Part shown: positions 2,317 through 29,307 of the stretch, in pieces | Position numbering within the stretch: position 1 is the first letter of the stretch | How the letters are laid out: every line of letters begins with the position of its first letter | DNA from: Spirochaetia bacterium | GTDB taxonomy: Bacteria; Spirochaetota; Spirochaetia; SZUA-6; Bin103 | Assembly (NCBI GenBank): GCA_965208575.1 | Contig: CBDBOV010000005.1 | Span: 1,120,001-1,184,000 of the forward strand | DNA: 64,000 nt | Direction: 5' to 3' | Made by a program: the position numbers and the translations under genes | Notes under the pieces: model-generated | Databases searched by the model: none | Seen by the model: only the letters and a program-made list of their open reading frames with translations | Told to the model about the DNA's origin: nothing

Positions 2317-3405
2317 CTACAACAGGTCGGGGCGCCGCTTGCCGATCTCCTGCACCGCGTCGCGCACCAGTTGGGTGCGGCCCTTGCGGGTCACCAGTAC
2401 GGCGCCGTTCTTCACCACCACGATGAGATCGTCGACGCCGGCCAATGCCACCGGAAGATCGCTGTACACGGCGTTGCCGCGCGCCTCGGCGGCCGCCACC
2501 GGCTCGTCGCCGTCCGCGATGCGCGCCAATTCGTCCCAGCTTCCGACGTCGCTCCAGCGAAACGAGGCCGGCACCGCCGCCACCCGGTCGCTGCGTTCCA
2601 TCAGGGCATAGTCTATGGAGATGGCAGGGACCCCGTCGTAGGCGGCGCGCAACTCCGGCGTGGGTGGTGCGACCAGCGGACCGCCGCCGTCGGCGGCGGA
2701 TGGCGCCGCGTGGAATGCCTCGACGTCGAGCAGCGCCGCAACCTCCGGGGCGTGCCGGCGCATCTCGGAGGCGAACAGCGTGAGGGGGAACAGGAACATG
2801 CCGGCGTTCCACAGGAATCCGCCGGCCGCGAGGAAGCGCTCGGCGCTGGCGCGGTCCGGCTTCTCCCGGAACGCGGCCACCCGATAGCCGCCGCCGAGCC
2901 GTCCGCCCAGTTCCAGGTAGCCGTAGCCGGTCTCCGGCCGCGTCGGCCGGATGCCGAACGTGGTCAGCCAGCCGTGCCGCGCCAGATCCCGCGCCGTGCG
3001 CACGTCGGCGGCGAAGGCGGCCTGCGGCTCGATGGCGTGGTCCGAGGACAGCACCAGCAGCGCTGCCTCGCCCGGGCCGCCGGCGCCGATCCGGCCCGCC
3101 AGAGCGGCACCGAGGGCGACCGCCGGTGCGGTGTTGCGCGCCGCCGGCTCGCCGACGACGTAGCAGGGCGCCGCCGCCGGCGCAGCGTCCAGGGCGGCGG
3201 TCTGTGCCGCCACCATGTCCACCTGGTCCTCGGCAGTCACCACCATTACCGCCTCGGACGACACCGTCCGCGCGCGCAGCAGCGCCTGCTGCAGGTAGCT
3301 CGGCCCGCCGTCGAAGCTCAGGTACTGCTTGGGCGCGGCGGCACGAGAGGCGGGCCACAGGCGCGTGCCGCTGCCGCCGGCCAGAATCAGGGTAATCAGG
3401 CTCAT
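2317..3405 (-). CDS. manC: Mannose-1-phosphate guanylyltransferase
   Basis: ILAGGSGTRLWPASR..PKQ, EP.ARNTAPA, PETGYGY, FREKP, WNAGMF and WSDVGSW. Confidence 0.95.
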   Translation of the reverse strand: MSLITLILAGGSGTRLWPASRAAAPKQYLSFDGGPSYLQQALLRARTVSSEAVMVVTAEDQVDMVAAQTAALDAAPAAAPCYVVGEPAARNTAPAVALGAALAGRIGAGGPGEAALLVLSSDHAIEPQAAFAADVRTARDLARHGWLTTFGIRPTRPETGYGYLELGGRLGGGYRVAAFREKPDRASAERFLAAGGFLWNAGMFLFPLTLFASEMRRHAPEVAALLDVEAFHAAPSAADGGGPLVAPPTPELRAAYDGVPAISIDYALMERSDRVAAVPASFRWSDVGSWDELARIADGDEPVAAAEARGNAVYSDLPVALAGVDDLIVVVKNGAVLVTRKGRTQLVRDAVQEIGKRRPDLL

Positions 3406-3544
3406 GGTGGCGTTCAGGGGGGCACCAGGCGGCCGGAGAGGGGCGCCGGCCGCGGCCATGGCGCCGGCGCCAAAGTGATCAGGCTCATCGCGGCGCCGGG
3501 CAGGTGCGCGAGGCGGGCAGATGGGTATTGGCGCGACAGCTCAT

Positions 3545-4257
3545 TCAGGGCAGTACCAGGCGGTCGGCGAGCGGCGCCAGCCGCCGGCGCAGCTCCGGCG
3601 ACAAGGTAGCGGCGATTTCGTATTGGGTGGCGCCTCCCGCGCGGGTGTACCCGAGGTGCAGCATGCGCCGCGGGCCGGAGCTGTAGTTGGCGCGCGCACC
3701 GTGCCAGGTGTCGCCGTGCAGCAGGATCGCCGACCCGGCCGGGCAGGTGGCCAGCACCTCTCCCGGCACCGCTGCGAATGGATCGTCCACCTCGGTGGCC
3801 GGAAACGGGCGCCGGTGAGAACCGGGCACGAGGCGCGTGGTGCCATTCTCGGGGTGATGTCGTCCAGGGCCAACAGCACGTTGAAGTAGGCGGGAGTGTC
3901 GCGCCAGCTTTGCCGGTCGGCGTGTATCGCCTGGTGCGGATGGTGGTGGCCGGGCCACGGATCGTGGGCGTTCATGGCGTGCCAGGTTACCGGGCGGCCA
4001 ATCATCAACTCGGCGAATTCCAGCACCAGGGGATCGGTGGCCAGCTCGACGAACACCTCGCCCTTGCTGAACAGGTTGCACAGCCGGCGCACGAACGGTG
4101 CCACCGCGGGCTGCTCCCAGCCGGCGCGCGCGCCCTCGCGCGCGTACAGGTGTTCGACCGCGTCGACCAGCGCCGCGACCCGCGCTGCCGGCAGGTAGCG
4201 CTCGACGATCACGTATCCGTCGCGCCGGAACGCGGCGCGCAGTTCGTCGTTGCTCAC
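3545..4257 (-). pseudogene. Phytanoyl-CoA dioxygenase (PhyH) family gene with a 1-nt frameshift near 3852
   Basis: N-half (F.RDGYVI, HAD, LALDDIT) and C-half (PENGTTRLVPGSH, HGDTWHG..AN...RR) are in different frames, joined at a CCCC run; pseudogene or sequencing error. Confidence 0.8.
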
Positions 4258-4355
4258 CCCGCCATCGTAAGCACTGCGGCGGAACGGTCAAGAGCACCGG
4301 CCGCGAACCATGGCGAACTGACCGCGAGCTTCCGGCGTGCGCAGCCGGGCGGCAC

Positions 4356-4838
4356 TCAATAGCTGCGGGCGTCGATCCGTTCGTCGCCGGCGCCCTCCAC
4401 GGCCACGAACACGCGATTGGGCAGGCACGCGATCCACTGGCCGGGCCGCGACACGGTGCCGCTCTTGACGCAGATCTGGTTGGCGCACGGGGCGGACTCC
4501 ACGAATACCTCGCCGCCGCGCACCACGATGCGACTGCTGCCGAGGGGGCCGGTCGCCTCCAGCACCTGGTCCTCCTCGGGGCGCAGCAGCCAGGTGGCGT
4601 TGGGAGCGGTCACGCGGATCATCGCTCTCCCGCCGCGCGAGCCGAGCACCCAGCGCGTTATGGCGCCCGCAACCCCCAGCGAGCACAGCAGTGCGGCGAC
4701 GTCCAGCAGGCGCAGCGGCAGCCAGCGAAGGAAGCGGCGCCGGCCGGGATCGGCCGGCCGGCCGCCGCGGACGGAGTCAGGTTGCTCGCGCACCCAGCGG
4801 CCCGGTTGTTGACGGGCGTCGGCGCAGGACGTATGCAT
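4356..4838 (-). CDS. NusG domain II-like (Lin0431-type) membrane protein
   Basis: TM segment, then GPLG, SAPCANQICVKSG and IACLPNRV; start uncertain. Confidence 0.85.
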   Translation of the reverse strand: MHTSCADARQQPGRWVREQPDSVRGGRPADPGRRRFLRWLPLRLLDVAALLCSLGVAGAITRWVLGSRGGRAMIRVTAPNATWLLRPEEDQVLEATGPLGSSRIVVRGGEVFVESAPCANQICVKSGTVSRPGQWIACLPNRVFVAVEGAGDERIDARSY

Positions 4839-4843
4839 GCCGT

Positions 4844-5332
4844 GTGAGCGTATACACCCCCATCGTCGGCACGCTCGGCTACGTGGTCTCTCCCGACCGC
4901 CAGCGCACGCTGCTGGTGTACCGCAACGCCCGCCCCGACGATGACCACCTCGGCAAGTACAACGGCCTCGGCGGCAAGATGGAGCCGCGGGAAGACATTG
5001 CCACCTGCATGCGGCGCGAGATACGGGAGGAAGCGGGCATCGAGTGTCGTGAGATGTCGTTGCGCGGCACCATCAACTGGACCGGCTTCGGACCGCGCGG
5101 CGAGGACTGGCTCGGATTCATCTTCCGCATCGACCGCTTCGACGGTGAGCCGTACGCCAGCAACCCGGAGGGTGTGCTGGAGTGGCATCCGATTGCCGGC
5201 CTCCTGTCGCTGCCGCTGTGGGACGGCGACCGCCACTTCCTGGCGATGGTGTTCGACGAGGATCCGCGCCCCTTCCACGGCTACATGCCCTACGAAAACG
5301 ACCGCGCGCTCGAGTGGCGGTACGTGCGCTGA
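4844..5332 (+). CDS. NUDIX hydrolase (8-oxo-dGTPase-like)
   Basis: Nudix box GGKMEPRE....MRREIREEAG; LPLWDGD. Confidence 0.92.
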   Translation: MSVYTPIVGTLGYVVSPDRQRTLLVYRNARPDDDHLGKYNGLGGKMEPREDIATCMRREIREEAGIECREMSLRGTINWTGFGPRGEDWLGFIFRIDRFDGEPYASNPEGVLEWHPIAGLLSLPLWDGDRHFLAMVFDEDPRPFHGYMPYENDRALEWRYVR

Positions 5333-5380
5333 GGAAACGTGCGTCGAGGGAGCGCGCGCCGAGGGGGCGGCCGGCGCGCT

Positions 5381-6379
5381 TCATGACGCGGCCGCGCGGC
5401 CCCGGTCCGCGCTGACCGCCTGAATCAGCGCGCGAATGTAGCCGAGGATATACGCTTCGCCCGCGTCGCCGGTCCCGTCGCCGAGTTGCGGCACGTGGTC
5501 GGGCACCACCATGCCGTCGTAGCCGACCTCCGCAAGCGCGGTCATGATCCGGTACATGTCCAGGTAGCCGTTGTCGGGGAAGGTTTCGTGGAAGTCGGGC
5601 ATCGGCGAACTGATGTTGCGGAAGTGCACCTGGAAGATGTGGCCGCGGCTGCCGAACTCGTAGATCGCTCCGGCCACGTCTTCGCCGCTGCCCTCGGGGC
5701 CGAACATCTCGGCAAAGCAGCCGACGCAGAACAGGATGCCGGAGTGCGGGCTGTGGCCGGCAATCTCCATGGCGCGGCGGAACGCCAGCCGGCTGCTGAA
5801 CAGCCGCGGTACGCCCTGGTGGTCCACCGGCGGGTCGTTGGGATGCAGTTGCAGGCGCACGCCGCTGTCCTCCGCCACCGGCAGGATCTCGCGGATGAAC
5901 GCGGCGTAGTTGTCCCACAGTTCGTCGTGCGAGTAGCGCCGCCCGTAGGCGTCGGGCAGCGCCTGCGCCTCGGCGAGCTGGAACAGGCGCGTGCTGCAGC
6001 CGCGCGTCTCGGTGCGGCCGGTGGCGTAGGCGCCGCCGGTGTGCCAGGCGTAGGTCATGACGCCGACGCCGGCGCGCCCGATGTCGCGGATGAAGCGCTT
6101 GAACAGGCCGATCTCGGCACCGCTCTCGGGCAGGCCGAGGGCGATGGGGCGGCAACTGTAGCGGTCGGCGAGCATGATCTCGTGCAGCCCCAGGCCGGCG
6201 CTCTCTACCGTGTCGCGCACCCGGCAGATGTCGTCGTAGCCGCACTCGCTGCTCGGGATGCGCACCTCGACCTTCTCCACTCCCATCTGGCGCAGGAAAC
6301 GCAGGCGCGACGGGGTCAGTGTCTCCGGCGTCTGGTGGCTGACGCCGAGTTGCAGGGCAGGGGAACTCATCGCCGCCAT
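5381..6379 (-). CDS. uxuA: Mannonate dehydratase family protein
   Basis: LPVAE..GV.L.LHPNDPP, VHFRN, ETFPDNG and PDHVP. Confidence 0.85.
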   Translation of the reverse strand: MAAMSSPALQLGVSHQTPETLTPSRLRFLRQMGVEKVEVRIPSSECGYDDICRVRDTVESAGLGLHEIMLADRYSCRPIALGLPESGAEIGLFKRFIRDIGRAGVGVMTYAWHTGGAYATGRTETRGCSTRLFQLAEAQALPDAYGRRYSHDELWDNYAAFIREILPVAEDSGVRLQLHPNDPPVDHQGVPRLFSSRLAFRRAMEIAGHSPHSGILFCVGCFAEMFGPEGSGEDVAGAIYEFGSRGHIFQVHFRNISSPMPDFHETFPDNGYLDMYRIMTALAEVGYDGMVVPDHVPQLGDGTGDAGEAYILGYIRALIQAVSADRGRAAAS

Positions 6380-6380
6380 C

Positions 6381-7187
6381 CTACCACTCCGGCACCGGCG
6401 GTGCCCATGCGCCGATCGCCATCACGCCGCCGTCCACGTTCACGTACTCGCCGGTCATGAAACCGGCGTGCTCGCTGGCCAGGAACACCATCGCCTTGCC
6501 GATCTCCTCCGGACGCCCGAGGCGGCCGAGCGGCTGGTTGCGCGCGAACATCGCCAGCGCCGCGGCCGGATCGTCGGTGGCGGCCGCCGCCTCCTGCACC
6601 AGCGGCGTGTCGATGGTGCCGGGGTTGACCGCCAGCACGCGGATGCCTTCCTTGGCGTAGTCGATCGCCATCTGGCGGGTCAGTGACATGATGCCGCCCT
6701 TGCTGGCCGCGTACGCCGGAACCTCGGGCATCGACTGCAGGCCCTGCACGCTGGCCACGTTGATCACCGCGCCGCCGCCGCGCTTGCGTATTTCCGGGAT
6801 ACAGTACTTGGCCATCAGGAAGTGGCTCTTGAGGTTCACCGCCAGGATGCGGTCCCACAGCTCCTCGGTGGTATCCTCGACGGTGCGGTAGGAGTCGGTG
6901 CTCTGGATGCCGACGTTGTTGATCAGCACGTCGATCGCGCCGAAGTGTGCCGCCGTCTCGGCCGCCGCCCGCCGGCACTCCGCCGTGATGCCGAGATCGG
7001 CGCCGATGAACACCGCTCCCGGGCCGCGCGCCGCCGCCTCCCGGGCGGTCGCCGCGCCGTGCTGCGCGTCCACGTCCACCACCGCCACGCGCGCCCCACT
7101 GGCCGCGAACTCCAGCGCGATGCCGCGCCCGATGCCCTGCGCGGCGCCGGTCACCAGCACCACCCTGCCGCCGTAGTCGATCGTCAT
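6381..7187 (-). CDS. SDR family oxidoreductase
   Basis: TGAAQGIG, NNVG, YAASKGG and NPGTIDT. Confidence 0.95.
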   Translation of the reverse strand: MTIDYGGRVVLVTGAAQGIGRGIALEFAASGARVAVVDVDAQHGAATAREAAARGPGAVFIGADLGITAECRRAAAETAAHFGAIDVLINNVGIQSTDSYRTVEDTTEELWDRILAVNLKSHFLMAKYCIPEIRKRGGGAVINVASVQGLQSMPEVPAYAASKGGIMSLTRQMAIDYAKEGIRVLAVNPGTIDTPLVQEAAAATDDPAAALAMFARNQPLGRLGRPEEIGKAMVFLASEHAGFMTGEYVNVDGGVMAIGAWAPPVPEW

Positions 7188-7242
7188 GCTGCCTCCTCGG
7201 CGCCCATGATACCCGCTGCGCGGGTCCGTGCGCATGGCTGAC

Positions 7243-7272
7243 CGCCCAACGCCCAACGCCCAACGCCCAACG
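7243..7272. repeat. 7-bp tandem repeat (CGCCCAA)x4
   Basis: Read directly; intergenic, upstream of the SDR gene. Confidence 0.9.
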
Positions 7273-7287
7273 GGCCAAGGCGAGCGT

Positions 7288-8370
7288 TCAACTCCAGCGC
7301 GGTTTGAGCACGTGGTAGCCCTGGTGCGCACTGAGCTTGCGCGCGATCTCGGCGACCTGCGCATTGGGGTCGTACAGCGCCAGCTCGAACAGTCGGCGGT
7401 GCTGCCGCGGGTCGAACCGGGCCAGCTCGCGCGCCGCGGCGAGCCGAACCACGTCGTCGGGATCTCGCAGGCCGCGCATGCACCACTCCGCGCCATCCCC
7501 GCCGCCGAGATGCGACAGTCCGGCGACGGCGGCGGCACGTAGCCCCTTGTGACTACACCGCGCATACGGCACGAGCAGGTGCGCATCGCCATCGTCGGTG
7601 CGCGCGATCAGCTCCAGGGCAGTGCGGCGCACGTTGTGGTCGTCGTCGCCGAGCATCAGCGCGCACCAGTCGACCAGGTCGGGGTCGCCGGCGCGGTTCA
7701 GGCGGCGCAGGCCGCGCAGCCGGCGCCGGGCGCTGCCCGATGCGAGTGCCTCCTCCACCTCGTCGGTGACCTCCTCGCTGCCCGCCGATTGCTCCAGGTC
7801 GGGGAGCACGGTCAGTTCGGCGGCGTGCCGGTGGACCCGCAGGGTCGCAGGATCTATCGACAGGTTCCGGAACCACTCCGGCAGCCAGCCGGCGGCGCGC
7901 TCCAGGATTTCGGCGTCGCGCAGGCGCGAGCGCGGCTGTGACATGCGCCGGTTCCGGATCCAGCGCGCCAGCCGTACCAGGCCCGGGTCGCCGCGGCCGA
8001 TGCCGCGATACGGCTTGAGCCCAAGCACGTTGTTCAGCCATGCCGCCAGCTCCGGCTCCGAGGAGGGCGGGTCCCACACCCCGGGTGCGTTGCGCAGCAC
8101 AGTGACCGGCAGGCTGCCGTTGATCGAGACGATGCCCGCGCGGTACACCACCCGTCCGGTGCCAAGCTTGCGGCGCAGCGCCGCCAAGTCGAGCTCGCAC
8201 TGCAGCACCACCGGGCGGCTGCCGCTGCGCCGCGCCTTCACCTTGGCGCGGCGCAGCGCGTAGCCCTTGCTCTGCGCGAACCACACGCGCCGCGACGGCT
8301 TGCGCGGCGCGAACCCCTCCAGGGCGATCTGCTCGGCGCTGCGCCGCGTGGTGCCGTGGTACAGCAGCAT
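7288..8370 (-). CDS. ART/KptA-like N-terminal domain fused to HEAT repeats
   Basis: LYHGT....I..EGF.P....VWFA.....A...RPVVL; C-terminal L.D.D..VR..A repeats. Confidence 0.75.
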   Translation of the reverse strand: MLLYHGTTRRSAEQIALEGFAPRKPSRRVWFAQSKGYALRRAKVKARRSGSRPVVLQCELDLAALRRKLGTGRVVYRAGIVSINGSLPVTVLRNAPGVWDPPSSEPELAAWLNNVLGLKPYRGIGRGDPGLVRLARWIRNRRMSQPRSRLRDAEILERAAGWLPEWFRNLSIDPATLRVHRHAAELTVLPDLEQSAGSEEVTDEVEEALASGSARRRLRGLRRLNRAGDPDLVDWCALMLGDDDHNVRRTALELIARTDDGDAHLLVPYARCSHKGLRAAAVAGLSHLGGGDGAEWCMRGLRDPDDVVRLAAARELARFDPRQHRRLFELALYDPNAQVAEIARKLSAHQGYHVLKPRWS

Positions 8371-8374
8371 GCGG

Positions 8375-8953
8375 CTACCCGCCGCGCTCCCAGCGGTAGT
8401 GGTACGAAACCGGCGGCGTGTGCTTGTCGAACCACTGCCGCCCGGCGTGGTCCAGCTTCCGGTATGCCTGCGCGGTCAGCACCACGCCGCGTCCGCCGAG
8501 CCGTGCGGCCACGTTCACCGCCTTGCCGATCACGTCGTAGCGGCGCAGCCCCGGCGGCCCGAACTCGCCGCTCACCACGGCGCCGAAGTGCACCTGCGCG
8601 CTCAAATGGGCGTCGAATCGGTGCTCGCGGGCCAGCCGGCGCACCGCTCCGGCGAACTCGCACAGCGCCTGCACCCCGTCGGCCATCCCGGCCGCAGGGA
8701 TCACGCACAGGCCCTCGGCGCCGTTCAGCTTCACCAGCCGCGCGCCGGCTCCGGCAATCGTGCTGCCGGCCAATTCGTAGTAGGACTGCAGAAACCGGGC
8801 GACGCGCCGGTCCTCGCTGGCCGAGTGCCACTCGCGAAGCCGGCCGAGGCCGAAAAAGGCGACCCCCAGTTCCTCGTTCTGCCACGGAACCGGAGGCGTG
8901 CTCACAGACGTGGATTGGACATCGCCAACCCCGCCGGCGGGTAGATCTGACAT
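8375..8953 (-). CDS. Class III adenylate/guanylate cyclase-like protein, metal-binding Asp residues absent
   Basis: VHFG.V..G.FG....YDVIGKAVNVAARL; RBS AGGAG upstream. Confidence 0.8.
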   Translation of the reverse strand: MSDLPAGGVGDVQSTSVSTPPVPWQNEELGVAFFGLGRLREWHSASEDRRVARFLQSYYELAGSTIAGAGARLVKLNGAEGLCVIPAAGMADGVQALCEFAGAVRRLAREHRFDAHLSAQVHFGAVVSGEFGPPGLRRYDVIGKAVNVAARLGGRGVVLTAQAYRKLDHAGRQWFDKHTPPVSYHYRWERGG

Positions 8954-9060
8954 GGTGCGCTCCTGATAAGGCGTATACTGACGACGAATCTGGGCAACCA
9001 TCGGCCGCCCACCCGCGCCATCCTCAATCTACCATCGCTCAAGGCGGAGCTGCAATGCCT

Positions 9061-9390
9061 TCATGTGCCGATGCGGGAGCGCTCGGCGTCGATGAATTCA
9101 CGCGGCGACACGACACGCACGCCGGCTCGGCGGTCAGGTGGGAAGTGATCGCCGTTCCCGGATACCAGGTACTCCGCCCGCGCCGCGACCGCCACTTCGA
9201 GAAACGGCTCGTCATCGGGATCCGGAAGGCGCACCGTCAATGGGACCGGTGAGGCCAGCACGCCTCCCGCTTCGATCTGGGCCGTCAGCGCACTGATCTC
9301 GTCCCGGCTGAACGGGAAAGCCTCCCGGTTGAGCACCTCGGTGTATTCGGCAACGATCCTGGCGTCATAGCAAATATTCAGCCGGCCTGT
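9061..9390 (-). pseudogene. PIN-domain toxin, 5'-truncated
   Basis: YDARIVAEY.EVL.R and LPDPDDEPFLEVA.....LVSGN..HF present; N-terminal DTNV motif missing. Confidence 0.75.
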
Positions 9391-9974
9391 TCGCTATGCT
9401 CGTCGCCCAGTTCGAGAAAGTCGAAGGTGTACTCGTCGCGGACCGCCAGGTGCGCCTGGGCGCGCAGTTCCGGTGTGACCGTCCGATCGAAGTTGGTCTG
9501 GCCCAGCAGGTACTTCCGGTAGCTCTGGTTCTCGATCTGGTGCATGAGAACGTTTTTGGTCCAGCCGAACTTGCGCGTCATGCGGATGTAAAACTCGCGC
9601 TCCAGCGGCTCCTTGCAGCGCCCCATGATCACCAGGTTCTTGCTCCAACTGATTTCTCCAACCAGCAGTTGGAGTTTCGGGTCCTCGTGATACTCCAGGA
9701 AGAACTGCCGCATGTACCAGAGATTCTGAGCGGAATACCCCGGTACGCCGGGAAACTCAGCCTGCAGGTCCTTGGCGAGCTGCTCGACCACCGACTTTCC
9801 CCAGGCTTGAGCCCTTTGCCGCTCCACGATCGTGCGGCCGATGTCCCAGTACAGACCGACCAGTTCCTTGTTCACCGCGTTCAGCGCGGCATACCGGGCC
9901 GCACGGACCCGTTCCTTCACTTCCGCCAGAAGGCTCACATAATCCGCCGGCAGTCGCGACCCGGTCTCACCCAT
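9378..9974 (-). pseudogene. DUF1016/YhcG family gene, truncated before the C-terminal nuclease domain
   Basis: VNKELV.LYW.IG, WGKSVVEQLAKDL, NLWYMRQF and D.Y.FDFL; stops just after HSE. Confidence 0.85.
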
Positions 9975-10146
9975 GGCTGCCCGCCAGTGCCCAAGGGTAG
10001 TTGATGACAGGGCGAAAGACAGGTTCTTGGCGATCGTGCCGTGTAGAACTACTGGACGGAGCACCTGACGCTGTTGTCTGAGTGTACAGGCCCCGGGTCG
10101 GAAACGCGATCACCATCACACGCCGCCTATCACGATCTCACCCAGC

Positions 10147-11070
10147 CTAACCCTTGACGGCGCCGACGGTGAAGCCCTGGATGAGGCGGTCGAGGAACAG
10201 GTTGTATACCAGGCCGACCGGGATGGCGATGATCAGGGCGGAGGCGAGCAGCGGCTGCCAGAAGAACACGTCGCCGAGGATCAGCTCGGAGGGCACGCCG
10301 ACGCTCAGCGTGCGCCACTCGGAGCGGGTGATGAACACGAGGGCGTAGATGAACTCGTGCAGGGTGAGGGTGAAGCTGAACACGACCACGGAGATGATGC
10401 CGGGGCGGGCGAGTGGCAGCGCCACGCGCAGGAACGCGCCGTAGGGGTGGTAGCCGTCGCACAGCGCCGCCTCCTCGGTCTCCGGCGGGATCGACTTGAA
10501 GAAGCCCATCAGCAGCCAGGCGCTGAACGGCACCGTGATGGTGGGGTAGACCACGATCAGCGACAGCAGCGAGTTGCTCAGGCCGAGCGCGACGATGATC
10601 CGGAACAGGGGGATGAACAGCAGCGTCGGCGGCACCAGGTAGACGATGAACATCAGGATGCCTGCGCGTTCGCCCCAGCGTCCGGTGAGGCGCGCCAGCG
10701 AGTACGCCGCCGGCAGCGCCAGCAGCAGCGTGATGACCACCACCGACGCGCCCACCACCATCGAGTTGCGCACGAAGACCACGTAGTTGGTGTCGTTGAA
10801 CAGGTTGTCCAGGTGCTCCAGGGTGGGCGCCTCGGCGTAGTCGAACGGACTCGCGTCGCGCCGGTACAGGTCCTTGTCGGTCTGGAAGGTGGTGATGCCC
10901 ATCACCAGGAACGGCGCCGCGGCAACGAGGCAGAACAGCAGCACGGCCACGGTGTACAGCGTGCCCTTGACGACGCGCCGCGGACTGACGCGTGCGAACG
11001 AACCGGGGGCACGCGCCGGCGGCGCCGCCGCCCGGTCCGCGTGCGCACCCGGCGTCACGGAGGCCGCCAT
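10147..11070 (-). CDS. Carbohydrate ABC transporter permease (MalG-like)
   Basis: EAA motif EEAALCDG; six TM segments. Confidence 0.93.
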   Translation of the reverse strand: MAASVTPGAHADRAAAPPARAPGSFARVSPRRVVKGTLYTVAVLLFCLVAAAPFLVMGITTFQTDKDLYRRDASPFDYAEAPTLEHLDNLFNDTNYVVFVRNSMVVGASVVVITLLLALPAAYSLARLTGRWGERAGILMFIVYLVPPTLLFIPLFRIIVALGLSNSLLSLIVVYPTITVPFSAWLLMGFFKSIPPETEEAALCDGYHPYGAFLRVALPLARPGIISVVVFSFTLTLHEFIYALVFITRSEWRTLSVGVPSELILGDVFFWQPLLASALIIAIPVGLVYNLFLDRLIQGFTVGAVKG

Positions 11071-12083
11071 CAGCGCACCTGCGCCCGGCTGGCGCCGCGC
11101 AGCATCACGATCGCCACCGCCAGCAGCACCGGAAAGATGAACAGCGCGATCGCCGCCCCCTGCGACAGGTTGCCGCCGTCGATGCCGACCAGGAAGCTGT
11201 ACATCGGCAACGTCAGCGTGTGGTTGATCGGCCCGCCGCGGGTCAGTACGTACACCACGGTCAGGTCGCCGAACGTGAAGATGAACGAGAACAGCAGCGA
11301 GTTGAGCATGATCGGCAGGATCAGCGGAAGCTTGACCTGGAACAGGGCGCGGAAGTAGCGCGCGCCGTCCGCCTTGGCCTGGTCGGACAGGTCGGTGGGG
11401 ATGCTCGACAGGCCGGCCATCAGGATCACCGTCGCCAGCGGCGTCATGCGCCACACGTGCACGAAGATGATCGACGCCTTGGCCAGGTAGGTCTTGCCCA
11501 GCCAGGTGAGGTTGCGGGAGGGCCCCCAGACGGTGCCCGGGCCGAGCAGGCCGATCTGCTCCAGCAGGTAGTCGATCGGGCTGTACTTGGAGTCGAACAT
11601 CCACAGCCAGCCGATCACGGACAGCGCCAGCGGCGTGGCCCACGGCATGATCAGCAGCAGGCGCGCGCCCCACATGCCGCCGCGCACCAGGCGGTTCTGC
11701 GGCAGCGGCGCGGTGAGAATCAGCGCCAGCATGTTGGCCAGGATCAGCACGAACACCTGGGCGACGATCGTGAACACGAAGGTGTTGCGCAGCGCGGCGT
11801 GGAAGTCGGGTGCGCTCAGCACGGTCTCGAAGTTGCGCAGGCCGGCGAATCGGAAGTCTGTGTTGCCGACCGTGGCGTCGCTCAGGCTGTAGGCGAACGC
11901 GGTGACGAACGGCACCCCGATCAGCAGCACGATGTACACCACCGCCGGCGCCAGGAACGCGAACCCCATCAGGCGCCGGTTGTCCAGCAGCCCGCCGGTC
12001 GCCGCCGCCACCGCCGCGTTGCCCGATGCGGGGGAGCCGTGCGGTCGCCGCTCCCCGTGTCTGTCCGTTGTGTTGCCGGTCAC
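11070..12083 (-). CDS. Carbohydrate ABC transporter permease (MalF-like)
   Basis: F.GL.NF, AGLSSIP.DL..QA.ADGA and LT.GGP. Confidence 0.93.
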   Translation of the reverse strand: MTGNTTDRHGERRPHGSPASGNAAVAAATGGLLDNRRLMGFAFLAPAVVYIVLLIGVPFVTAFAYSLSDATVGNTDFRFAGLRNFETVLSAPDFHAALRNTFVFTIVAQVFVLILANMLALILTAPLPQNRLVRGGMWGARLLLIMPWATPLALSVIGWLWMFDSKYSPIDYLLEQIGLLGPGTVWGPSRNLTWLGKTYLAKASIIFVHVWRMTPLATVILMAGLSSIPTDLSDQAKADGARYFRALFQVKLPLILPIMLNSLLFSFIFTFGDLTVVYVLTRGGPINHTLTLPMYSFLVGIDGGNLSQGAAIALFIFPVLLAVAIVMLRGASRAQVR

Positions 12084-12354
12084 GGCGCGGCGGTCCTGGG
12101 CGCGCCCTGTTCGGCGCCGCTGTCATTGCCCGACCGGGGCACGCCAGTCGTCGGGTCGCCGCAAAATTCGCAGCAGTCGGTTGGGGGGACGGCGCTGGAA
12201 CGACTGTGTCGCTGCCCGCCTCGGTCAGGCGGCTCTCGGGCCGCTGTCGACGCCGAGCCGAACGGGGCGGTTCGTGCCGCGGCGGCTGGGGGCACCGCTT
12301 GGATGGAGGGCACTGGTCGGCGGCCGTTCCGGATCTCGGTTCCGAGCGGACCGA

Positions 12355-13425
12355 TCATCGGTGCGCCCTCCCGCGGCGGACGCGGCCTGCGCCGTCCTCC
12401 GCGAGCCGAGTGCCGCTACGGCGGTCGAAGCGGTGCGCACGGGTAACCGCGAACGGGTAGGTGCGGCCGACCTCCAGCGCGATGGTGACATTGCTTGGCA
12501 GCCGCGCGAGGGTCAGGTGCGGGTTGCCCTGAGAGTCGTCGACGTGGCCGTACAGCAGCCGGTCGGCGCCCAGGTACTCCTGGCGCGTGACCTGGTAGTC
12601 GAAGCGCCACGTCGAGCCGGCGGGGGCCGCGCCGTCCTCCGCCGGCTGCAGGTGCTCGGGACGGAAGCCGAGCAGCTCGTCCTCGGCCACCGGCAGCAGG
12701 TTCATGCCCGGTGAGCCCAGGAAGGTGGCGACGAAGGTATTGGCCGGCTGGTCGTAGATTGCCTGCGGCGGTCCCACCTGCTGCACCAGGCCGTGCTCCA
12801 TCACCACGATGCGGTCGCCGAGGCCCATCGCCTCGATCTGGTCGTGGGTCACGAAGATGGTGGTGATGCCGAGCTCGCGCTGAAAGAATTTCAACTCGTC
12901 GCGGGCGTAGGCGCGCAGCTTGGCATCCAGGTTGCTGAGCGGCTCGTCGAGCAGCAGCACCTCCGGCTCGGTGACGATGGCGCGCGCGATCGCCACGCGC
13001 TGCCGTTCGCCGCCGGAGAGCTGGCGCGGGCGCCGGTCGAGGAGGTGGTCGATGCTCACCTTGCGCGCCGCCTGCAGCACCCGCTCGGCGCGCTCGTTGC
13101 GGTCCGGGCAGCGCCCCTGCGCCTTGAGCGGAAAGGCGATGTTGCCTGCCACCGTCATGTGCGGGTACAGCGCGTAGGACTGGAACACCATCGCGATGCC
13201 GCGCTTGCGCGGCGGCAGGGCGGTGACGTCGCGCTCACCGATGTGCACCCGCCCCGCGGACGGCGTCTCCAGGCCCGCCACGGTGCGCATCAGGGTGGTC
13301 TTGCCGCACCCGGACGGCCCGAGCACCACCAGGAATTCTCCCGACTCGACCTCCAGGTCCACCCCGGCCACGGCCACGACGTCGCCGAACCGCTTCACGA
13401 CCCCGGCCAAGCGAACCGCGCTCAT
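12355..13425 (-). CDS. Sugar ABC transporter ATP-binding protein (MalK-like)
   Basis: [27 protein letters not shown] and DEPLSNLD. Confidence 0.96.
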
Positions 13426-13502
13426 ACGTGTTCCTCAGTACATCGTCCGGCACTCGCCAGAGTCATCGGCGGCTTTGCGACCTGGTCAGGCGCCAGCACG
13501 GA

Positions 13503-14105
13503 TCATGACAGGCTTCGCAACCGACTCAGGAGTTCCTTGGCGTGTGGACATGCAGCCTCCACGCAACTGGAGTTGAGCTTCGCCAAGAGGTCGAACGACA
13601 CTTTCCCTTTGTCGTAAGGAGGCGAACACCGAGCGGTCGCCGCTTGAAGCGCAGAGAGAACAGTCGTTTTCGGCACCTCCTCAAGCACGGGCCATGCTTT
13701 GAAGTGGCTCTCAACGAACTCGCGACCGAAGTATCCCCTCAACAGTTCGCGATCCGCGAGAAACCACGTCTCCATTGCCACCACCATGAGAAACGCTTGA
13801 TCGTCGCCTGCGCCGTCCGGTCGTGTCCAGCAATCACGGCTCTGCAGATGCTGCCATACGGTCGCCCCTTCCCTTACCCTGTCTTCGCTGTCTACGAGCA
13901 GGACTGGAAGCTTCCGAGCATGCGGGTTGCGAACTGCATGGGCGAACTTCTCGTACGTCTGGTCGCGGCCACCGCCACGCACAATGGCAGGCATGCGGCC
14001 GGACAGACCTGCCGATCTGAAGAATTCGCTCCAGGCTTTGCGGAATCTCTGCTCGTGCAGCTGCCCGTCGCCGCCACCCTCGATGAAGATCTGTGCGCTC
14101 ACCAT
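13503..14105 (-). CDS. DUF4276 family (TOPRIM-like) protein
   Basis: IFIEGG, LLVDSE, METWFLAD and Y.KGK.S; overlaps the ATPase stop; appears lower in GC. Confidence 0.75.
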   Translation of the reverse strand: MVSAQIFIEGGGDGQLHEQRFRKAWSEFFRSAGLSGRMPAIVRGGGRDQTYEKFAHAVRNPHARKLPVLLVDSEDRVREGATVWQHLQSRDCWTRPDGAGDDQAFLMVVAMETWFLADRELLRGYFGREFVESHFKAWPVLEEVPKTTVLSALQAATARCSPPYDKGKVSFDLLAKLNSSCVEAACPHAKELLSRLRSLS

Positions 14106-15289
14106 CGGTTACCTCCGATGTCCCCGCTACTCCAGAGATCTCCCAGCGTTGCCGACGCGCCGAATTGCTCCAACCACTGCTTCAGGTGCGCTTCGTCCAA
14201 ACGCGTAAACTGCGATTCGCCATTCTCCCTGGCGCATACCACCACGGTCGAAGGGTGCTCGGTGAGCGCGTCCACCAGCATCCGAGAATGGGTCGTCACC
14301 ACGAGCTGCATGCGTCCGGACGCCTCGATCAAGAGTTCGGCAATCTCCGGGATCAGGTCCGGATGAAGCCCAAGCTCCGGTTCCTCGATCGCAACCAGCG
14401 GCGGAGGATCGGGATGCAACAGGATGGACAGGAGCGTCAGATAGCGCAGAGTACCGTCGGAAAGACGGGCCATGGTGATCAGACGCCCGCCGCTCTCCTT
14501 CAGAAAGAGCAGGAGGTTGCCGTCCCGAATCGTTGCGTAGATACCATCTACGTCTTCGTACAATTGGCGCAGCGCATCGACGAAGCGATTCTCGATGCGC
14601 GGCAGAATGTTGGACAGCACAAGAATCAGGTTGTTGGCGCCGTCGTCGAGGATGTCGTTTCTGCCGTGACTGCTCTGCATGCGCCGCAGTGGCGTAGACG
14701 GACCGAATGTCCAGTCTCGGTACAGGCGGATTCGTTCGTATTGTTCCTGGAGCCAGCCGAGAACCGGATACCGCTCCGGATCCTTCACCTGGGACAGAAT
14801 CGACTTCTCCGGCTTCACGCTCTCCCGTCGAAGCCCTCGAACTCCCGAGTCAACGATGACCGGCTCTCCGCGCTGATAGCGATAGAAGAAGAACGTGTCC
14901 TGAGAGCCTGGCCGCGGACGTTCGTGTTCGATTCGTTCGTCTGCGATCTCAAAACGTTCGCCATGCCGAGTAATCTCCAGGACGTGGCGTAGCGGCATCC
15001 GGGCGTGCGACGGAGACTCGATGACCGCGTCGACGGTCGCTACGCTCACCGCATTGGTCAGGGTGGGAACCGTCGGCGCTTTCCAGAGCCACTCCTGCAC
15101 GCCGCCCATCGCCTTGATCGGTGCCGGAAGATCATGCGGCGACGCGCGCAATAGCGCCAGCACCTCGAGCAGATTCGACTTCCCCGAACCGTTCGGACCA
15201 ATCAGGACGTTCAGCGGCTGCAGCGGCAGGTCGATCCCACCCGGCCCGAACGACAACAGGCCGGCTACCCTAAGCCGATGTATCAACAT
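14099..15289 (-). CDS. ABC/AAA_21-type ATPase (defence-associated family)
   Basis: LIGPNGSGKSN, LSDGT, IEEPELGLHP and TTHS. Confidence 0.9.
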   Translation of the reverse strand: MLIHRLRVAGLLSFGPGGIDLPLQPLNVLIGPNGSGKSNLLEVLALLRASPHDLPAPIKAMGGVQEWLWKAPTVPTLTNAVSVATVDAVIESPSHARMPLRHVLEITRHGERFEIADERIEHERPRPGSQDTFFFYRYQRGEPVIVDSGVRGLRRESVKPEKSILSQVKDPERYPVLGWLQEQYERIRLYRDWTFGPSTPLRRMQSSHGRNDILDDGANNLILVLSNILPRIENRFVDALRQLYEDVDGIYATIRDGNLLLFLKESGGRLITMARLSDGTLRYLTLLSILLHPDPPPLVAIEEPELGLHPDLIPEIAELLIEASGRMQLVVTTHSRMLVDALTEHPSTVVVCARENGESQFTRLDEAHLKQWLEQFGASATLGDLWSSGDIGGNRW

Positions 15290-21667: not shown

Positions 21668-24600
21668 TTACGGCGCGGCTACGTACACCTGCGTGAACTC
21701 CACCGGACCGTGGAGGGTGCGCAGTGCGATCGTGTCGCCGCCGCGCACTCCCGTGCCGACGCTGACGGTGAGATGTTCCTCGCCGTTGACCAGGAGGGTC
21801 GTCATGCCGGTGTCGCGGTAGAGTGCCTCCACGTTGATCATCGAGGAGAGGCCATGCGGGATCCTGCTGCTCGCGAGCCACATCAGCGTGTTGTCGTCCG
21901 CCGACTCGTAGAACTGCAGGTGCAGATCCTCGGAGTCGTAGAACGGATCCTGGGTCACCCACAGCAGATAGGACGTGCCGTAGTTCCAGGTATTCCCTGA
22001 ATCCGGGGTAGCCGAGGCCAGAATGTGCAGTCCGAATCCAACCTTGCTTCCGCCGTCGGCGTTGGCCGAGAACCCGAACAGCAACGTGTCCGCCGACTGG
22101 CCCGCCGGAATAGAGAACTTGGCGTGGGTCGAGTCGGCGTCGGTCTGAACGATCGATCCACCCCGAGAATCCCACGTTCCTTCGCCCGGAAGCGCCTCAC
22201 CGCCGGCAAAACCGTTCACCACGAAGTTGCCGGTTCGGATCAGGTTGTCGCGGGCAAGTTCGCCGCGCGTGCGCACGTCCCAACCGTCGTCGCTCGCCGC
22301 CACCATCACCTGGCCGTCGGCGCCGCGTGTCAGCGTCAGGGTATGGGCACGGCCCTCGATCCCGACGTTGGAGATGACCAGCTTGTCATCCTGGAGAGTC
22401 GGTTGCGCCGCATCGAGCTGCAACGAGTCGGCAACCAGGTTGGCCCCCTCGAACAGCGCCGTTGCCGTTGCCGTGCCGGCGTCGTAGCGAATTCGCGCCG
22501 ACACCGGGGCGCCGGCATACTGGATTCCGGAAATGTAGACCTCGTTTGGCCCGGCGGCCGACAGGGACGCCGCTTCAAGATCAAGCAGACCGACGTTCAG
22601 GCCAGGCAGGGTCGACCCTTCCATGAGAGCGGCGATTTCCGTCTCCAGCGCCATCGCACGGCTCTCGGCCATGCCCAGCGCATCGTTTGCCGCGTCCAGC
22701 TCGCTGTTTGCCGCGGCCAGCGCGTTGTTCGCCGCCGCCAGCGCCAGGCGCGCTGCTTCGGCGTCGGCATTCGCCGCATCGAGTTCCTGCTTCTGCGCGG
22801 CGAGCTCGGTCAGTGCCGCGGACAGCTCCGCTCGGGCATCGGCCAGGTCCGCGCGCGCATCGGCCAACAGGGCTTCAGGCTTCGTCGGCAGGTTCACGCG
22901 GCTCAGGCCGGATACCTGCAACTGCCCGTCCCCGGTGTACTGCAGCGTTCCGGAGTACCCGGCGCCGCCAACACCGACGTTGGAGACCCGGAACGAGTCC
23001 GGCGCCTCGAACGCTACCGTGGTCTGTGAGAGGTCGACCGAGTCGGGAATCAACTTGCCGACCGGCCCGAACACGTACTGCACGGTGGCGCTCGTGCCGC
23101 CCGCGTACTTGAGCAGGGCGGAGTAGGGCTGACCATCGTACATGATGTTCGAGACGTAGATGGCGTCGGGTCCGGCCAGCGAAACCTGCGCGCTGCCGAA
23201 GTCGGCAAGACCGGCATCGAGCTGAGAGAAGGCGACCTGCACCGCCGAAGGCTGATGCATCGCCATCTTCATCGCGTCCATCTCGGCTTCCGCCGCCGCG
23301 GCGCGCGCCATCGCGGCGTCTACCTTGGCATCGGCGTCGGCCATGGCCGCGCTCACCATTTCGTCCGCGGCGGCCTTGACATCGCTGACCATCTGGTCCG
23401 CTTCGGCCATGGCCGCGCTCACCGCGGCATCGGCGTCGGCCATGGCGGCGCTGACCATCCGGTCCGCATCGGCCATCGCCGCATCGATCGCCGCGGCGGC
23501 CTTCTCGGCCTCGGTCGGCGGCAGGGTGACGCGGCGAATGCCGGTCACCTGCAACTGCCCGTTGCCGGTGTATTGCAGCGTGCCGGAGTAGCCGACGCCG
23601 CCCACGTTGACGTTGGAGACCGCGAAGGAATCGGGCGATACGAAGGCGACCGTGGTCTGCGACAGTCCGACCGCATCGGGAATCAGCTTGCCGGCTGCCC
23701 CGTACACGCCGAGCACGGTAGCGGTGGTGCCGCCCTCGTACTTGACCAGCGCCGAATAGGGCTGCCCGTCGTACATGATCGACGAGATGTAGATCCTGTC
23801 CGGGCCGGCGAGCGACGCCTGTGCGTTGTCGAAGTTCGCCAGCGCGGCGTCCAGGCTGCCGAACGAGATCATCACGTCGGATGCCTGGCGCATGGCCATC
23901 TTCATGGCTTCCAGTTCGGCGCGCGCCGCATCCGCTTCCGCCCTGGCGTCGGCCACCCTGGCATCGGCGTCCGCCATCGCGGCGGCCACTTCCGCGGCGG
24001 CGTCGGCCATCGCCGCGCTCACCATTTCCTCGGCTTCGGCCTTGGCGTCGCTCACCATCCGAGCGGCGTCGGCCTTGGCCGCCTCGATGGCGGCGTCGGC
24101 CATCTCCGCCTCGGTCGGCGGGAGCGTGACGCGGCGGATGCCGGTCACCTGCAGTTGTCCGTTGCCGGTGTACTGCAGCGTGCCCGAGTACCCGTTGCCG
24201 CCGACCGACACGTTCGACACCGCGAACGTGTCAGGAGAGCGGAAGGAGATTTCGGTCTGTGCCAGACTCACCGAATCGGGAATCAGCTTGCCGTCCGGTC
24301 CGAACACCTGCTTCACGACGGCGGTGGTGCCGCCGGCGTATGCGAGCAGGGCCGAGTAGGGCCGTCCGGCGTACATGATGTTGGAGACGTAGATGGCGTC
24401 GGGTCCGGCCAGCGACGCGACGGCGTTGCCGAAGTCCACCAGGCTGGCGTCCAGGTCGGCAAACGAGACCATCACCTCGGACGCCTGATGCATCGCCATC
24501 TTCATCGCGTCGAGTTCCGCGTTGGCCATGTCCGCGGCATCCTGCGCGGCGTCGGCAGCGGCCTGCGCCGCGTTGGCCTCGGCCTGTGCCGCTTCAAGGG

Positions 24601-27600
24601 CGGTCTGCGCGGCCTGCAGTTCGGATTCCAGAGACGCAATCTGCTCGCCCTTTGCGCTGGCGTCGGCAAGGGCGGCTTCGAGTTCCGCCTTGGCGTCGGC
24701 CAGCATGTCCATCGTGGTCGGCGGCAGTTGCACCTGGCGAATGCCGGTGACCTGCAGCTTGCCGTTGCCGGCGTACTCCAGGGTACCGGAATAGCCGGCT
24801 CCGCCCACGGAGACGTTGGACACCTCCCAGGCGTTCGGCGCCACGAAGACCAGCTCCGTCTGCGACAGATCCACGGAGTCAGGGATCACCTTGCCGCTGC
24901 TGCCGAATACGTGGCTGACCTCGGCGGTGGTGCCGCCGGTGTAGCGCAGCAGCGCCGAGTAGTTTTGGCCGTCATACATGATCGACGACACGTACACGGA
25001 ATCGGGCCCCGCAAGGGAAACCCGGGCGCCGGCGAAGCTGGCGCGGCTCGGATCGATCTGGCTGTCCGAGATCATGATCGCGGACGGCTGGAACGCGGCG
25101 GCGATCATGGCGGCGAGTTCATCGCCGGCCATGTCCGCTTCCGCCTGCGCCTCATCGGCAGCGGCTTGCGCGGCGGACGCCATGTTGTTGGCGGCCTCCA
25201 GATCCGCTGCCAGGGAAGCGATCTCCTCGCCCTGCGCGCTGTTCTCCGCTTGCGCGGCTGCCAACGCCGCCTGTACTTCAGCGAGCGCGGCCTGCGCCTC
25301 CTCCAGTGCGGTAGGCGGCAACTCCACCATGCGGATGCCGGTGACCTGCAGCGTGCCGTCGCCGGCGTACTCCAGCGTGCCGGAGTAGCCGACCCCGCCC
25401 ACGGAGACGTTGGACACCTCCCAGGCGTTCGGCGCCATGAACACCATCTCGGTTTGCGACAGGTCGACGGAGTCCGGGATCAGCTTGCCGCTGCTGCCGA
25501 ACACCTGCCGGACTTCGGCGGTGGTGCCGCCGGTGTAGCGCAGCAGTGCCGAGTAGCGCTGCCCGTCATACAGGATCGACGATACGTACACCGAATCGGG
25601 ACCAGCGACCGCCACCCGGGCGTCGGCGAAGCTCGCCTTGCTCGGGTCGATCTGGCCGTCCGAGATCATCACCGCGGATGGTTGGAAGGCGTCCGCCATC
25701 ATCGCTTCAAGCTCGGCCTGGGCCATGTCGGCGTCCGCCATCGACATGGCGGCGCTCGCCTGCGCGTCGTCGGCCATCGCCTGCGCGTCGGCGAGATCCG
25801 CCTCCAGCGCGGCGTTGTCCGCCGCAAGGGCGTCGTTGTCCGCCTGCGCGGCGGCCAGCGCCGCCTCGACCTCGGCCAGAGCGGCCTGCGCCTCTTCCAG
25901 CGCGGTAGGCGGCAACTCCACCATGCGGATGCCGGTGACCTGCAGCGTGCCGTCGCCGGTGTAGGCGAGCGTGCCGGAGTAGCCGGACCCGCCTACCGAG
26001 ACGTTGGACACCTCCCATGCGTTGGGAGATACGAACACCAGCTCGGTCTGCGACAGGTCCACGGAGTCGGGAATCAGTTTCCCTGCGGAGCCGTAGATCT
26101 GCTTCACCTCGGCGGTGGTGCCGCCGGTGTAGCGCAGCAGTGCCGAGTAGCGCTGCCCGTCGTACATGATCGAAGACACGTACACGGAGTCGGGGCCTGC
26201 GACCGCCACCCGGGCGTCGGCGAAGCTCGCCTTGCTCGGGTCGATCTGGCCGTCCGAGATCATCACCGCGGACGGTTGGAAGGCGTCCGCCATCATCGCT
26301 TCGAGCTCGGCCTGGGCCATGTCGGCGTCCGCCATCGACATCGCCGCGCTCGCCTGCGCGTCGTCGGCCATCGCCTGCGCGTCGGCAAGATCCGCCTCAA
26401 GAGCGTCGTTGGCGGCCTGCGCGGCGGCCAGCGCCGCCTCGACCTCGGCCAGAGCGGCCTGCGCCTCTTCCAGCGCGGTAGGCGGCAACTCCACCATGCG
26501 GATGCCGGTGACCTGCAGCGTGCCGTCGCCGGTGTAGGCGAGCGTGCCGGAGTAGCCGGACCCGCCTACCGAGACGTTGGACACCTCCCATGCGTTGGGA
26601 GATACGAACACCAGCTCGGTCTGCGACAGGTCCACGGAGTCGGGAATCAGTTTCCCTGCGGAGCCGTAGATCTGCTTCACCTCGGCGGTGGTGCCGCCGG
26701 TGTAGCGCAGCAGTGCCGAGTAGCGCTGCCCGTCGTACATGATCGAAGACACGTACACGGAGTCGGGGCCTGCGACCGCCACCCGGGCGTCGGCGAAGCT
26801 CGCCTTGCTCGGGTCGATCTGGCCGTCCGAGATCATCACCGCGGACGGTTGGAAGGCGTCCGCCATCATCGCTTCGAGCTCGGCCTGGGCCATGTCGGCG
26901 TCCGCCATCGACATCGCCGCGCTCGCCTGCGCGTCGTCGGCCATCGCCTGCGCGTCGGCAAGATCCGCCTCAAGAGCGTCGTTGGCGGCCTGCGCGGCGG
27001 CCAGCGCCGCCTCGACCTCGGCCAGAGCGGCCTGCGCCTCCTCCAGCGCGGTAGGCGGCAGCTCAACCATGCGAATGCCGGTGACCTGCAGCGTGCCGTC
27101 GCCGGTGTAGGCGAGCGTGCCGGAGTAGCCGGACCCGCCTACCGAGACGTTGGACACCTCCCATGCGTTGGGAGATACGAACACCAGCTCGGTCTGCGAC
27201 AGGTCCACGGAGTCGGGAATGAGCTTCCCTGCCGAGCCGTAGATCTGCTGCACCTCGGCGGTGGTGCCGCCGGTGTACTTGAGCAGCGCCGAGTAGCGCT
27301 GGCCGTCGTACAGGATCGAAGACACGTACACGGAGTCGGGGCCGGCTACCGCCACCCGGGCGTCGGCGAAGCTCGCCTTGCTCGGGTCGATCTGGCCGTC
27401 CGAGATCATCACCGCGGACGGTTGATACGCGTCGGCCATCATCGCGTCGATGGTGGCCTTGGCCTCGGCCGCCATGGAGTGCCCCTCGTCGGCGCTGAAC
27501 TGAGCGGCCTGCAAATCTGCCTCAAGAGAGGCCACGTCACCTTCGAGCGACGCTACCTGGTCGCTCATCGCGGCGTTGTCCGCCTGCGACGCCGCCAGCG

Positions 27601-29140: not shown

Positions 29141-29307
29141 TTGCTCCTCCTCCGTAGTTTGGCGCCGCGCACCGCCGTAACCCGCGCCCACGCCGTGCCG
29201 GAGAATATATTGTTGTCTAGCTTGAACGATAGCGGCGGGCGTGTCCACTACTTTCGAACGGGCACGACACCGGCACTATCGCACAAGCGTGCGATCTATC
29301 CTGCGCT

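Follow-up and report, generated by a model that had tools for sequence, protein, structure and literature searches.

The window analysed here, a 64,000-nucleotide stretch of the genome of a sponge-associated Spirochaetia bacterium (GCA_965208575.1, contig CBDBOV010000005.1, positions 1,120,001 to 1,184,000), carries a pair of adjacent minus-strand genes that form our subject. Gene 1 (8375..8953), recognised from its open reading frame (ORF), its Pfam and PADLOC matches and its relatives, encodes a 192-residue class III cyclase-homology protein, and gene 2 (7288..8370) encodes a 360-residue protein of three domains: an ADP-ribosyltransferase (ART) lobe, a helical domain and HEAT repeats. As an earlier note, made from the letters of this DNA alone, had described, the genes are co-oriented and 4 bp apart; gene 1 ends in TAG, and a spacer at 8371..8374 on the same strand leads to the ATG of gene 2; the two genes are likely to be translationally coupled across it, judging from the sequence. 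The mechanical ORF of gene 1 extends to 9001, and we placed the start at 8953 because all gene 1 relatives share the same MS.. N-terminus, a choice further supported by AGGAG, a ribosome-binding-like motif read from the sequence at 8960..8964 (minus strand), 6 nt ahead of this ATG. A scan of positions 7000-9500 for promoters and terminators returned 0 sites of either kind.

The ART-HEAT protein and its wider family

All domains of gene 2 are read from the minus strand. The structure search of the predicted model, a profile alignment and conservation place an ART fold at residues 1-97 (8080..8370); model and conservation delimit a conserved helical middle domain at residues 98-182 (7825..8079); residues 183-198 (7777..7824) form a low-confidence linker, disordered in the model and variable in the alignment; and Pfam and structure search identify PBS-lyase-type HEAT repeats at residues 199-355 (7306..7776). 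The model of the full protein had a predicted local distance difference test score (pLDDT) of 82, and that of residues 1-185 a pLDDT of 86.

Searching with the model of residues 1-185, we found that the top 19 Foldseek matches listed were all Tpt1/KptA proteins (best E 9.4e-5). With VIA-align, model residues 1-96 superposed on residues 94-180 of 9ld3_A (Z 11.5, root-mean-square deviation 2.1, 85 residues); the matches ranking after it scored at most 8.2, and all 50 of the 50 listed were ART-fold or ART-like proteins, mostly known ADP-ribosyltransferases. Residues 1-97 are thus predicted to adopt an ART fold whose nearest counterpart is the NAD+ lobe of Tpt1/KptA, in agreement with the earlier note, which had likened the N-terminus to the Tpt1/KptA C-domain from the pattern LYHGT..GF.P..VWFA..PVVL, present in the sequence. 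Two further libraries gave leads that fit an ART fold and nothing more specific: a protein-atlas search with residues 1-185 returned only weak leads (Tox-ART-HYD1 and Arr-ms clusters at 0.90-0.91), and a viral structure library returned small phage ARTs (DarT, Arr and KptA-like).

Sequence profiles reached the same lobe. The NCBIfam model for RNA 2'-phosphotransferase, PRK00819, aligned residues 2-92 to profile positions 97-178 of 183 (E 2.1e-4). Pfam PTS_2-RNA did not match the gene 2 protein of the window, for which a Pfam scan gave HEAT families only, and the host genome contains no PF01885 match; among 33 relatives of gene 2, Pfam matches to ART families were weak (PTS_2-RNA in 11, ART-PolyVal in 6 and PARP in 4), all with E >0.01 and with a best PTS_2-RNA E of 0.025. 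A profile alignment to TkoKptA was colinear across the whole lobe, at an E of 0.09 that is not significant, and placed H5-G6-T7 on H98-G99-T100, W30 on H122 and a basic PSRR loop near R118. According to PMC12678800, H98, G99 and T100 contact the adenosine ribose and the nicotinamide amide of NAD+, R118 and H137 are phosphate contacts, and H122 packs on the nicotinamide ribose. The PSRR loop of gene 2 lies at the site of the fourth catalytic-tetrad Arg, R118 in TkoTpt1.

Residues invariant across the 33 relatives include H5, G6, T7, T8, W30 and R41. No acidic residue within ART residues 1-100 is invariant or nearly so in this set; gene 2 thus lacks a catalytic Glu of the H-Y-E or R-S-E type, in line with the earlier note, which saw no obvious catalytic Glu. 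Tpt1 likewise lacks a catalytic Glu. Gene 2 and Tpt1/KptA thus have in common a superposable NAD+ lobe, the HGT strand, here invariant, and the missing Glu; unlike Tpt1/KptA, gene 2 has nothing ahead of the first NAD+-lobe strand, and its helical domain and HEAT repeats come after it.

In the helical domain, W111, G130, R133, L134 and W137 are invariant across the 33 relatives. Its fold found no usable match in an atlas search with residues 98-185, and only 1 of the 50 matches of the wide structure search reached past residue 99. The C-terminal repeats are readily assigned: Pfam HEAT_2 (PF13646 type) scored 44.8 bits against a cut-off of 27.7, and a structure search with residues 196-360 returned PBS-type HEAT proteins at Z 12-14.5 (alphaRep 14.5, YibA 12.4), confirming that gene 2 ends in HEAT repeats. 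These repeats resemble those of alphaRep, YibA, CpcE/F and NblB, and in gene 2 they are fused to an ART domain; the repeat fold says nothing about the ligand.

To place the ART and helical unit more widely, we ran a profile search of 1.84 billion representatives, finding 260 proteins at E <=1e-3. Besides HEAT-fused forms, these comprise metagenomic proteins that share the ART lobe and helical domain with gene 2 and carry an N-terminal extension, in several cases with HTH_17, instead of the C-terminal HEAT repeats; one distant ART relative carries a phage MuF domain. In 22 sequences, including 16 more distant relatives at 20-27% identity, H5, G6, T7 and W137 are invariant, and W111, N113 and E154 nearly so. 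Because key residues are invariant in both the HEAT-fused and the N-extended branches, the ART and helical unit is, on its sequences, a family of its own beyond the reach of any curated model. A full-text literature search found no published description of the ART-HEAT architecture or of its pairing with a cyclase; the ART superfamily and class III cyclases are known kinds of module, of which this architecture and pairing appear to be a new variant.

A cyclase homologue without its metal-binding aspartates

Gene 1 matched Pfam Guanylate_cyc (PF00211) at E 3.1e-4, its 20.8 bits falling just under the cut-off of 21.9, and the PADLOC PycC model at E 1.3e-6. Precomputed PF00211 matches exist for many of its close and distant relatives, and all 24 aligned cyclases match PycC (best E 9.7e-20). 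Every class III motif that the earlier note had listed is present: LVK, YDVIG and VNVAARL, which keep K75, D140, N147 and R151, together with FFG and KLNGA, in which the two metal-binding Asp positions are occupied by Gly35 and Ala79. K177 is also kept. In keeping with the mammalian and mycobacterial cyclase literature, we take K/D to be the substrate-specifying pair and N/R the transition-state pair.

Whether the Asp loss is conserved or recent was addressed with a comparison of 90 sequences: the window protein, 66 relatives from a protein search and 23 cyclases translated from genomic loci. Fifty of these form a close clade (61-100% identity), 44 of them readable at both metal positions and 6 of them fragments; the other 40 are distant (34-54% identity), with 36 readable. 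Both Asp are kept in all 36 readable distant sequences and lost in 40 of the 44 readable members of the close clade, 36 of which have Gly and Ala as in the window. The remaining four keep one Asp (P0067 and P0101) or both (P0097 and P0102), so that basal members retain the complete site and stepwise intermediates of its loss exist. Among the readable sequences of the 90, K75, D140, N147, R151 and K177 are near-universal, with 3 exceptions. In the Asp-less clade, GDAG has become GAEG (cyclase residues 78-80, window 8714-8722, minus strand), which puts a Glu one position past the lost Asp; this Glu80, retained in nearly all Asp-less sequences and in some intermediates, might conceivably compensate for the lost Asp as a metal ligand.

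For the four genus genomes that contain the pair, selection on it was measured as the ratio of nonsynonymous to synonymous substitution rates (dN/dS). The cyclase gave 0.24-0.32 in 6 of 6 pairs, gene 2 gave 0.20-0.27 and the flanking short-chain dehydrogenase (SDR) gene 0.11-0.35, so the cyclase falls inside the range of its neighbours and is under purifying selection. Because the loss is clade-wide with intermediates and dN/dS is like that of neighbouring genes, we read the Asp loss, from these comparisons, as old, stepwise and maintained, not as recent decay. That gene 1 is a decaying, functionless relic and gene 2 alone matters is accordingly very unlikely. The loss of both metal ligands, a Pfam score just under the cut-off and deletion of the gene in one relative would suit a relic, but the dN/dS values do not, and neither do the 40 Asp-less relatives, nearly all of them full length and none with an internal stop, the retention of K, D, N and R, or the conserved 4-bp coupling to gene 2.

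Keeping K/D/N/R while losing both Asp is also the pattern of the mammalian C2 domain, and the earlier note had proposed a heterodimer half-site; gene 1 would then be the C2-like half of a cyclase completed by a C1-like partner. This is largely excluded: in the 6.5-Mb, 95%-complete host assembly, a PF00211 search found gene 1 as the only match at E <=0.01, and gene 2 has no cyclase fold. The same genome holds no match to PF00027 (cNMP_binding), a search that did not extend to other cyclase classes or GAF-type receptors. With a single PF00211 domain and no PF00027 match, both a C1-like partner and the sensing of cyclic AMP (cAMP) from another class III cyclase are disfavoured, and the cyclic-nucleotide sensor of the earlier note finds no more support than the half-site. 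Gene 1 resembles class III adenylyl and guanylyl cyclases in its PF00211 similarity, which scores just under the cut-off, and has their K/D and N/R pairs, and the distant relatives in its own small family have all six canonical residues; unlike those enzymes it lacks both metal Asp and stands alone at 192 residues with no sensor domain, and unlike catalytically incomplete C2-type half domains it has no complementary partner domain in its host genome.

Linkage, accessory distribution and neighbourhood

To determine how regularly the two genes co-occur, we collected 53 genome loci with a gene 2 relative and left out six (3 with HEAT repeats only, 2 at contig edges and 1 deletion remnant). Of the 47 assessable loci, 24 have a cyclase as the immediate upstream neighbour of gene 2, in the same orientation, counting one (L011) in which the contig end cuts the cyclase. 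These 24 come from metagenome-assembled genomes (MAGs) labelled Planctomycetota, Armatimonadota, Hydrogenedentota and Spirochaetia, with single Pseudomonadales and Bacillota cases. In the other 23, at least 2.5 kb of upstream DNA contains no cyclase. A quick tree, whose base is poorly resolved, divides the cyclase-less loci into three groups: Latescibacterota with Gemmatimonadota, Poribacteria, and a planctomycete paralogue whose host genomes carry a linked copy as well. The cyclase profile matches nothing in one Poribacteria genome, and three other genomes have only small cyclases, 29-37% identical and located elsewhere. The small cyclases found in Latescibacterota and Gemmatimonadota (29-37%) and in other spirochaete families (27-38%) do not adjoin a gene 2 homologue. 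With 23 loci lacking the cyclase and one genome lacking any match to it, gene 2 can, on this distribution, function without any cyclase; the ART-HEAT protein therefore looks like the core and the cyclase like an add-on regulator, and the proposal that gene 2 is a dedicated effector of a cyclase signal did not hold.

Two arrangements seen among these loci stand on their own. Poribacteria MAGs contain two tandem gene 2 homologues of 344 and 352 residues (4892-5926 and 6001-7059 of locus L016), sometimes with a third nearby, which have neither a cyclase nor the PSRR loop. In a Latescibacterota locus (L055), a 179-residue Asp-intact cyclase of the same small family (4019-4558, minus strand, 37% identity) is followed by a 308-residue ORF (3205-4131, minus strand) that resembles a zinc carboxypeptidase by eye; the minimal cyclase may thus pair with other partners, as far as this arrangement indicates.

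Within the order, 92 genomes were compared and close matches to the pair occur only in the genus of the source genome, in 4 of its 11 genomes including the source. Four of the seven genus genomes without a match are 90-98% complete, and the SDR gene, which lies downstream of the pair on the same strand, has an orthologue in 9 of the 10 other genomes of the genus. One of these relatives (L073) has lost 2.3 kb, comprising the cyclase, the gene remnants upstream of it and the first (5') half of gene 2, and the deletion has brought the 3' (HEAT) half of gene 2 (window 7827) up against the ABC permease gene (window 10151; matches to window 6113-7827 and 10151-11004). In another, 4.2 kb of different sequence separates the points at which synteny stops (~7220) and starts again (14069). 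The pair is accessory, and the segment is variable, as this deletion and synteny break demonstrate.

The remnants directly upstream of the pair are both on the minus strand: the C-terminal fragment of a PIN-domain gene (9061..9336; PF13470, E 8e-7, profile positions 85-113 of 115) and a DUF1016 gene reduced to its N-terminal domain (9378..10064; PF17761, E 7e-47), whose PDC-S02-like PADLOC match spans 190 of ~350 positions and which is a remnant because its nuclease half is missing. Their Pfam matches bear out the earlier placement of the pair directly downstream of DUF1016/PIN remnants. Two further genomes of the genus likewise have the PIN remnant beside the pair.

The conflict-system context drawn from these remnants is a local one. 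Diverse housekeeping functions (Mur ligase, RsgA, FtsK, sulfatases, methyltransferases and ABC transporters) flank the pair at 17 linked loci of other lineages, restriction- or helicase-like genes occur at only 2 of the 17, and the cyclase is the only neighbour conserved across phyla. Because the flanking genes in other phyla are of this housekeeping kind, a role in defence is not established, and we consider it doubtful that the pair is an anti-phage or abortive-infection system of Pycsar type, in which a cyclase would be coupled to an NAD+-consuming or ADP-ribosylating effector. Several features do suit such a system: the patchy presence in 4 of 11 genomes within a segment disrupted by the 2.3-kb deletion and the ~7220-14069 synteny break, the DUF1016 (PADLOC PDC-S02) and PIN remnants, an AAA_21 and DUF4276 pair 4.5 kb upstream of gene 1, and phage MuF domains among distant ART relatives. 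As in Pycsar, a cyclase gene that matches PycC stands directly before a second gene. The match of 24 of 24 aligned cyclases to PycC carries little weight, however, since PycC models describe class III cyclases and any member of the fold will match them. Signal synthesis is essential in Pycsar, yet the metal site is gone in the whole clade, whose cyclase is inactive as far as its residues predict; and, unlike Pycsar effectors, gene 2 has no cNMP-binding, transmembrane or TIR domain, occurs alone at 23 loci and does not sit in defence islands. A scan of viral contigs with one N-terminal peptide pattern gave 11 pattern matches and 0 relatives.

The same local features, small tightly coupled genes with accessory distribution beside PIN and DUF1016 remnants, could also describe a toxin-antitoxin pair in which an ART toxin is neutralised by the small upstream protein, and ART toxins such as DarT and ParT exist. 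This we regard as highly improbable, given that gene 2 occurs without the cyclase at 23 of 47 loci and in tandem duplicates, a misfit for an antitoxin-dependent toxin, and that we know of no cyclase-fold antitoxin.

The lineages involved raise another possibility, that gene 2 is a eukaryote-like HEAT and ART protein with which sponge symbionts modify host or community targets, the cyclase being incidental. Relatives are mostly MAGs labelled Poribacteria, Spirochaetia, Latescibacterota, Gemmatimonadota and Planctomycetota; several sequencing runs containing this stretch of the window are labelled sponge metagenome, three of them covering it at 85-99% likeness; gene 2 is tandemly duplicated in Poribacteria; and many ARTs are effectors. 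A host-interaction factor is nonetheless unlikely: gene 2 opens with the first ART strand (MLLYHGTT), leaving no signal peptide, secretion genes are not conserved near the pair, and the tight operon with a cytosolic cyclase homologue at 24 loci points to an intracellular role. One sponge metatranscriptome run yielded three contigs of only 221, 237 and 214 nt, at a depth of 3.7-4.8, on 7586-7770, 7868-8087 and 8811-9019, which are at most a weak hint of expression, as DNA is possible in such libraries and the contigs cannot show transcription.

A proposed NAD+-lobe core with a cyclase-derived regulator

Tentatively, and as a possibility that we favour without holding it firmly, we read the pair as an accessory operon in which an ART-HEAT protein built on the NAD+ lobe is the core and a cyclase-derived pseudo-enzyme its regulator. 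The anatomy, folds, residue conservation, linkage, selection and accessory distribution of the pair are observed, whereas nucleotide binding, enzymatic activity, contact between the two proteins and their biological role are inferred. The most likely ligand of the ART lobe of gene 2 would be NAD+ or an ADP-ribose-like molecule, bound by the invariant HGT strand. Having, like Tpt1, no catalytic Glu, gene 2 would either use a phosphate-type nucleophile as the acceptor of ADP-ribose or serve as a module that binds NAD+ or ADP-ribose. The helical domain and HEAT repeats would stand in for the RNA lobe of Tpt1 and bind a target or partner. Gene 1 would be a lineage-specific add-on regulator: in most phyla it has all six canonical residues and would be a minimal enzyme of the adenylyl cyclase type; in this spirochaete genus, where both metal Asp are gone and the adenine-, ribose- and phosphate-contacting residues are kept, it would most likely be a non-catalytic ATP-binding subunit that gates or assists the ART-HEAT protein. 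We infer the latter from the combination of lost Asp, kept contact residues and purifying selection. A predicted complex of gene 2 with the cyclase scored 0.00 (mark 0.32) and counts neither way.

A more specific version of this operon is conceivable and, in our estimate, quite unlikely. With the cyclase fold acting as a non-catalytic ATP-binding subunit, the Tpt1-like lobe would ADP-ribosylate a phosphorylated small molecule or macromolecule, perhaps the nucleotide held by the cyclase, and so produce a new nucleotide signal or modification; the Asp-intact and Asp-less cyclases would then be two evolutionary states of one coupling.

Several observations weigh against the reading of an NAD+-lobe core with a pseudo-enzyme regulator. 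The likeness of gene 2 to Tpt1 in sequence lies under every curated threshold, the PRK00819 match reaching 20.9 bits, far under its cut-off of 231. The RNA lobe of Tpt1 is absent, and with it three of the four catalytic tetrad residues (Arg-His-Arg), and Trp30 replaces TkoTpt1 H122; for these two reasons the ART domain could bind its ligand without being a catalyst. The coupling to a cyclase is not obligatory, as about half of the gene 2 homologues have none, and the genomic neighbourhoods give no functional hint. As for the interpretation that the earlier note had built on the pair, it is supported in part: three of the refuting conditions set by that note were checked, concerning the co-occurrence of the genes, the conserved Asp loss and the ART fold, and none of them went against it, whereas the half-site, the cyclic-nucleotide sensor and a defence context beyond the locus found no support.

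If correct, the proposed operon would provide a natural bacterial pseudo-cyclase that is maintained by selection and has a defined partner, so that one module could be compared cleanly, between lineages, with and without catalysis. It would also define a new branch of the ART superfamily, consisting of the Tpt1 NAD+ lobe only and a new helical domain with HEAT or N-terminal (partly HTH) extensions, and might link ATP/cAMP-type with NAD+/ADP-ribose-type nucleotide chemistry in uncultured symbionts. Should the ART domain do no more than bind and the pair have only a small regulatory part, it would be an ordinary lineage-specific module.

Two other features of the window lie outside the pair. The DUF4276 protein mentioned above (13503..14105, E 1.3e-10) overlaps the end of an AAA_21/AAA_15 ATPase gene (14099..15289, E 1.2e-34), both on the minus strand; this stretch has a G+C content of 0.60 as against ~0.70 and lies between the ATPase and solute-binding genes of an ABC transporter operon, and from its sequence 13503-15289 looks like an inserted defence-type pair. 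Further along, a 2526-residue ORF with internal repeats (21668-29248, minus strand) has only weak Pfam matches (Stimulus_sens_1 and DUF6438), and between 22.9 and 28.6 kb the DNA of a relative matches it many times over, with 64-76% identity; a 1916-residue ORF overlapping it on the opposite strand is probably spurious.

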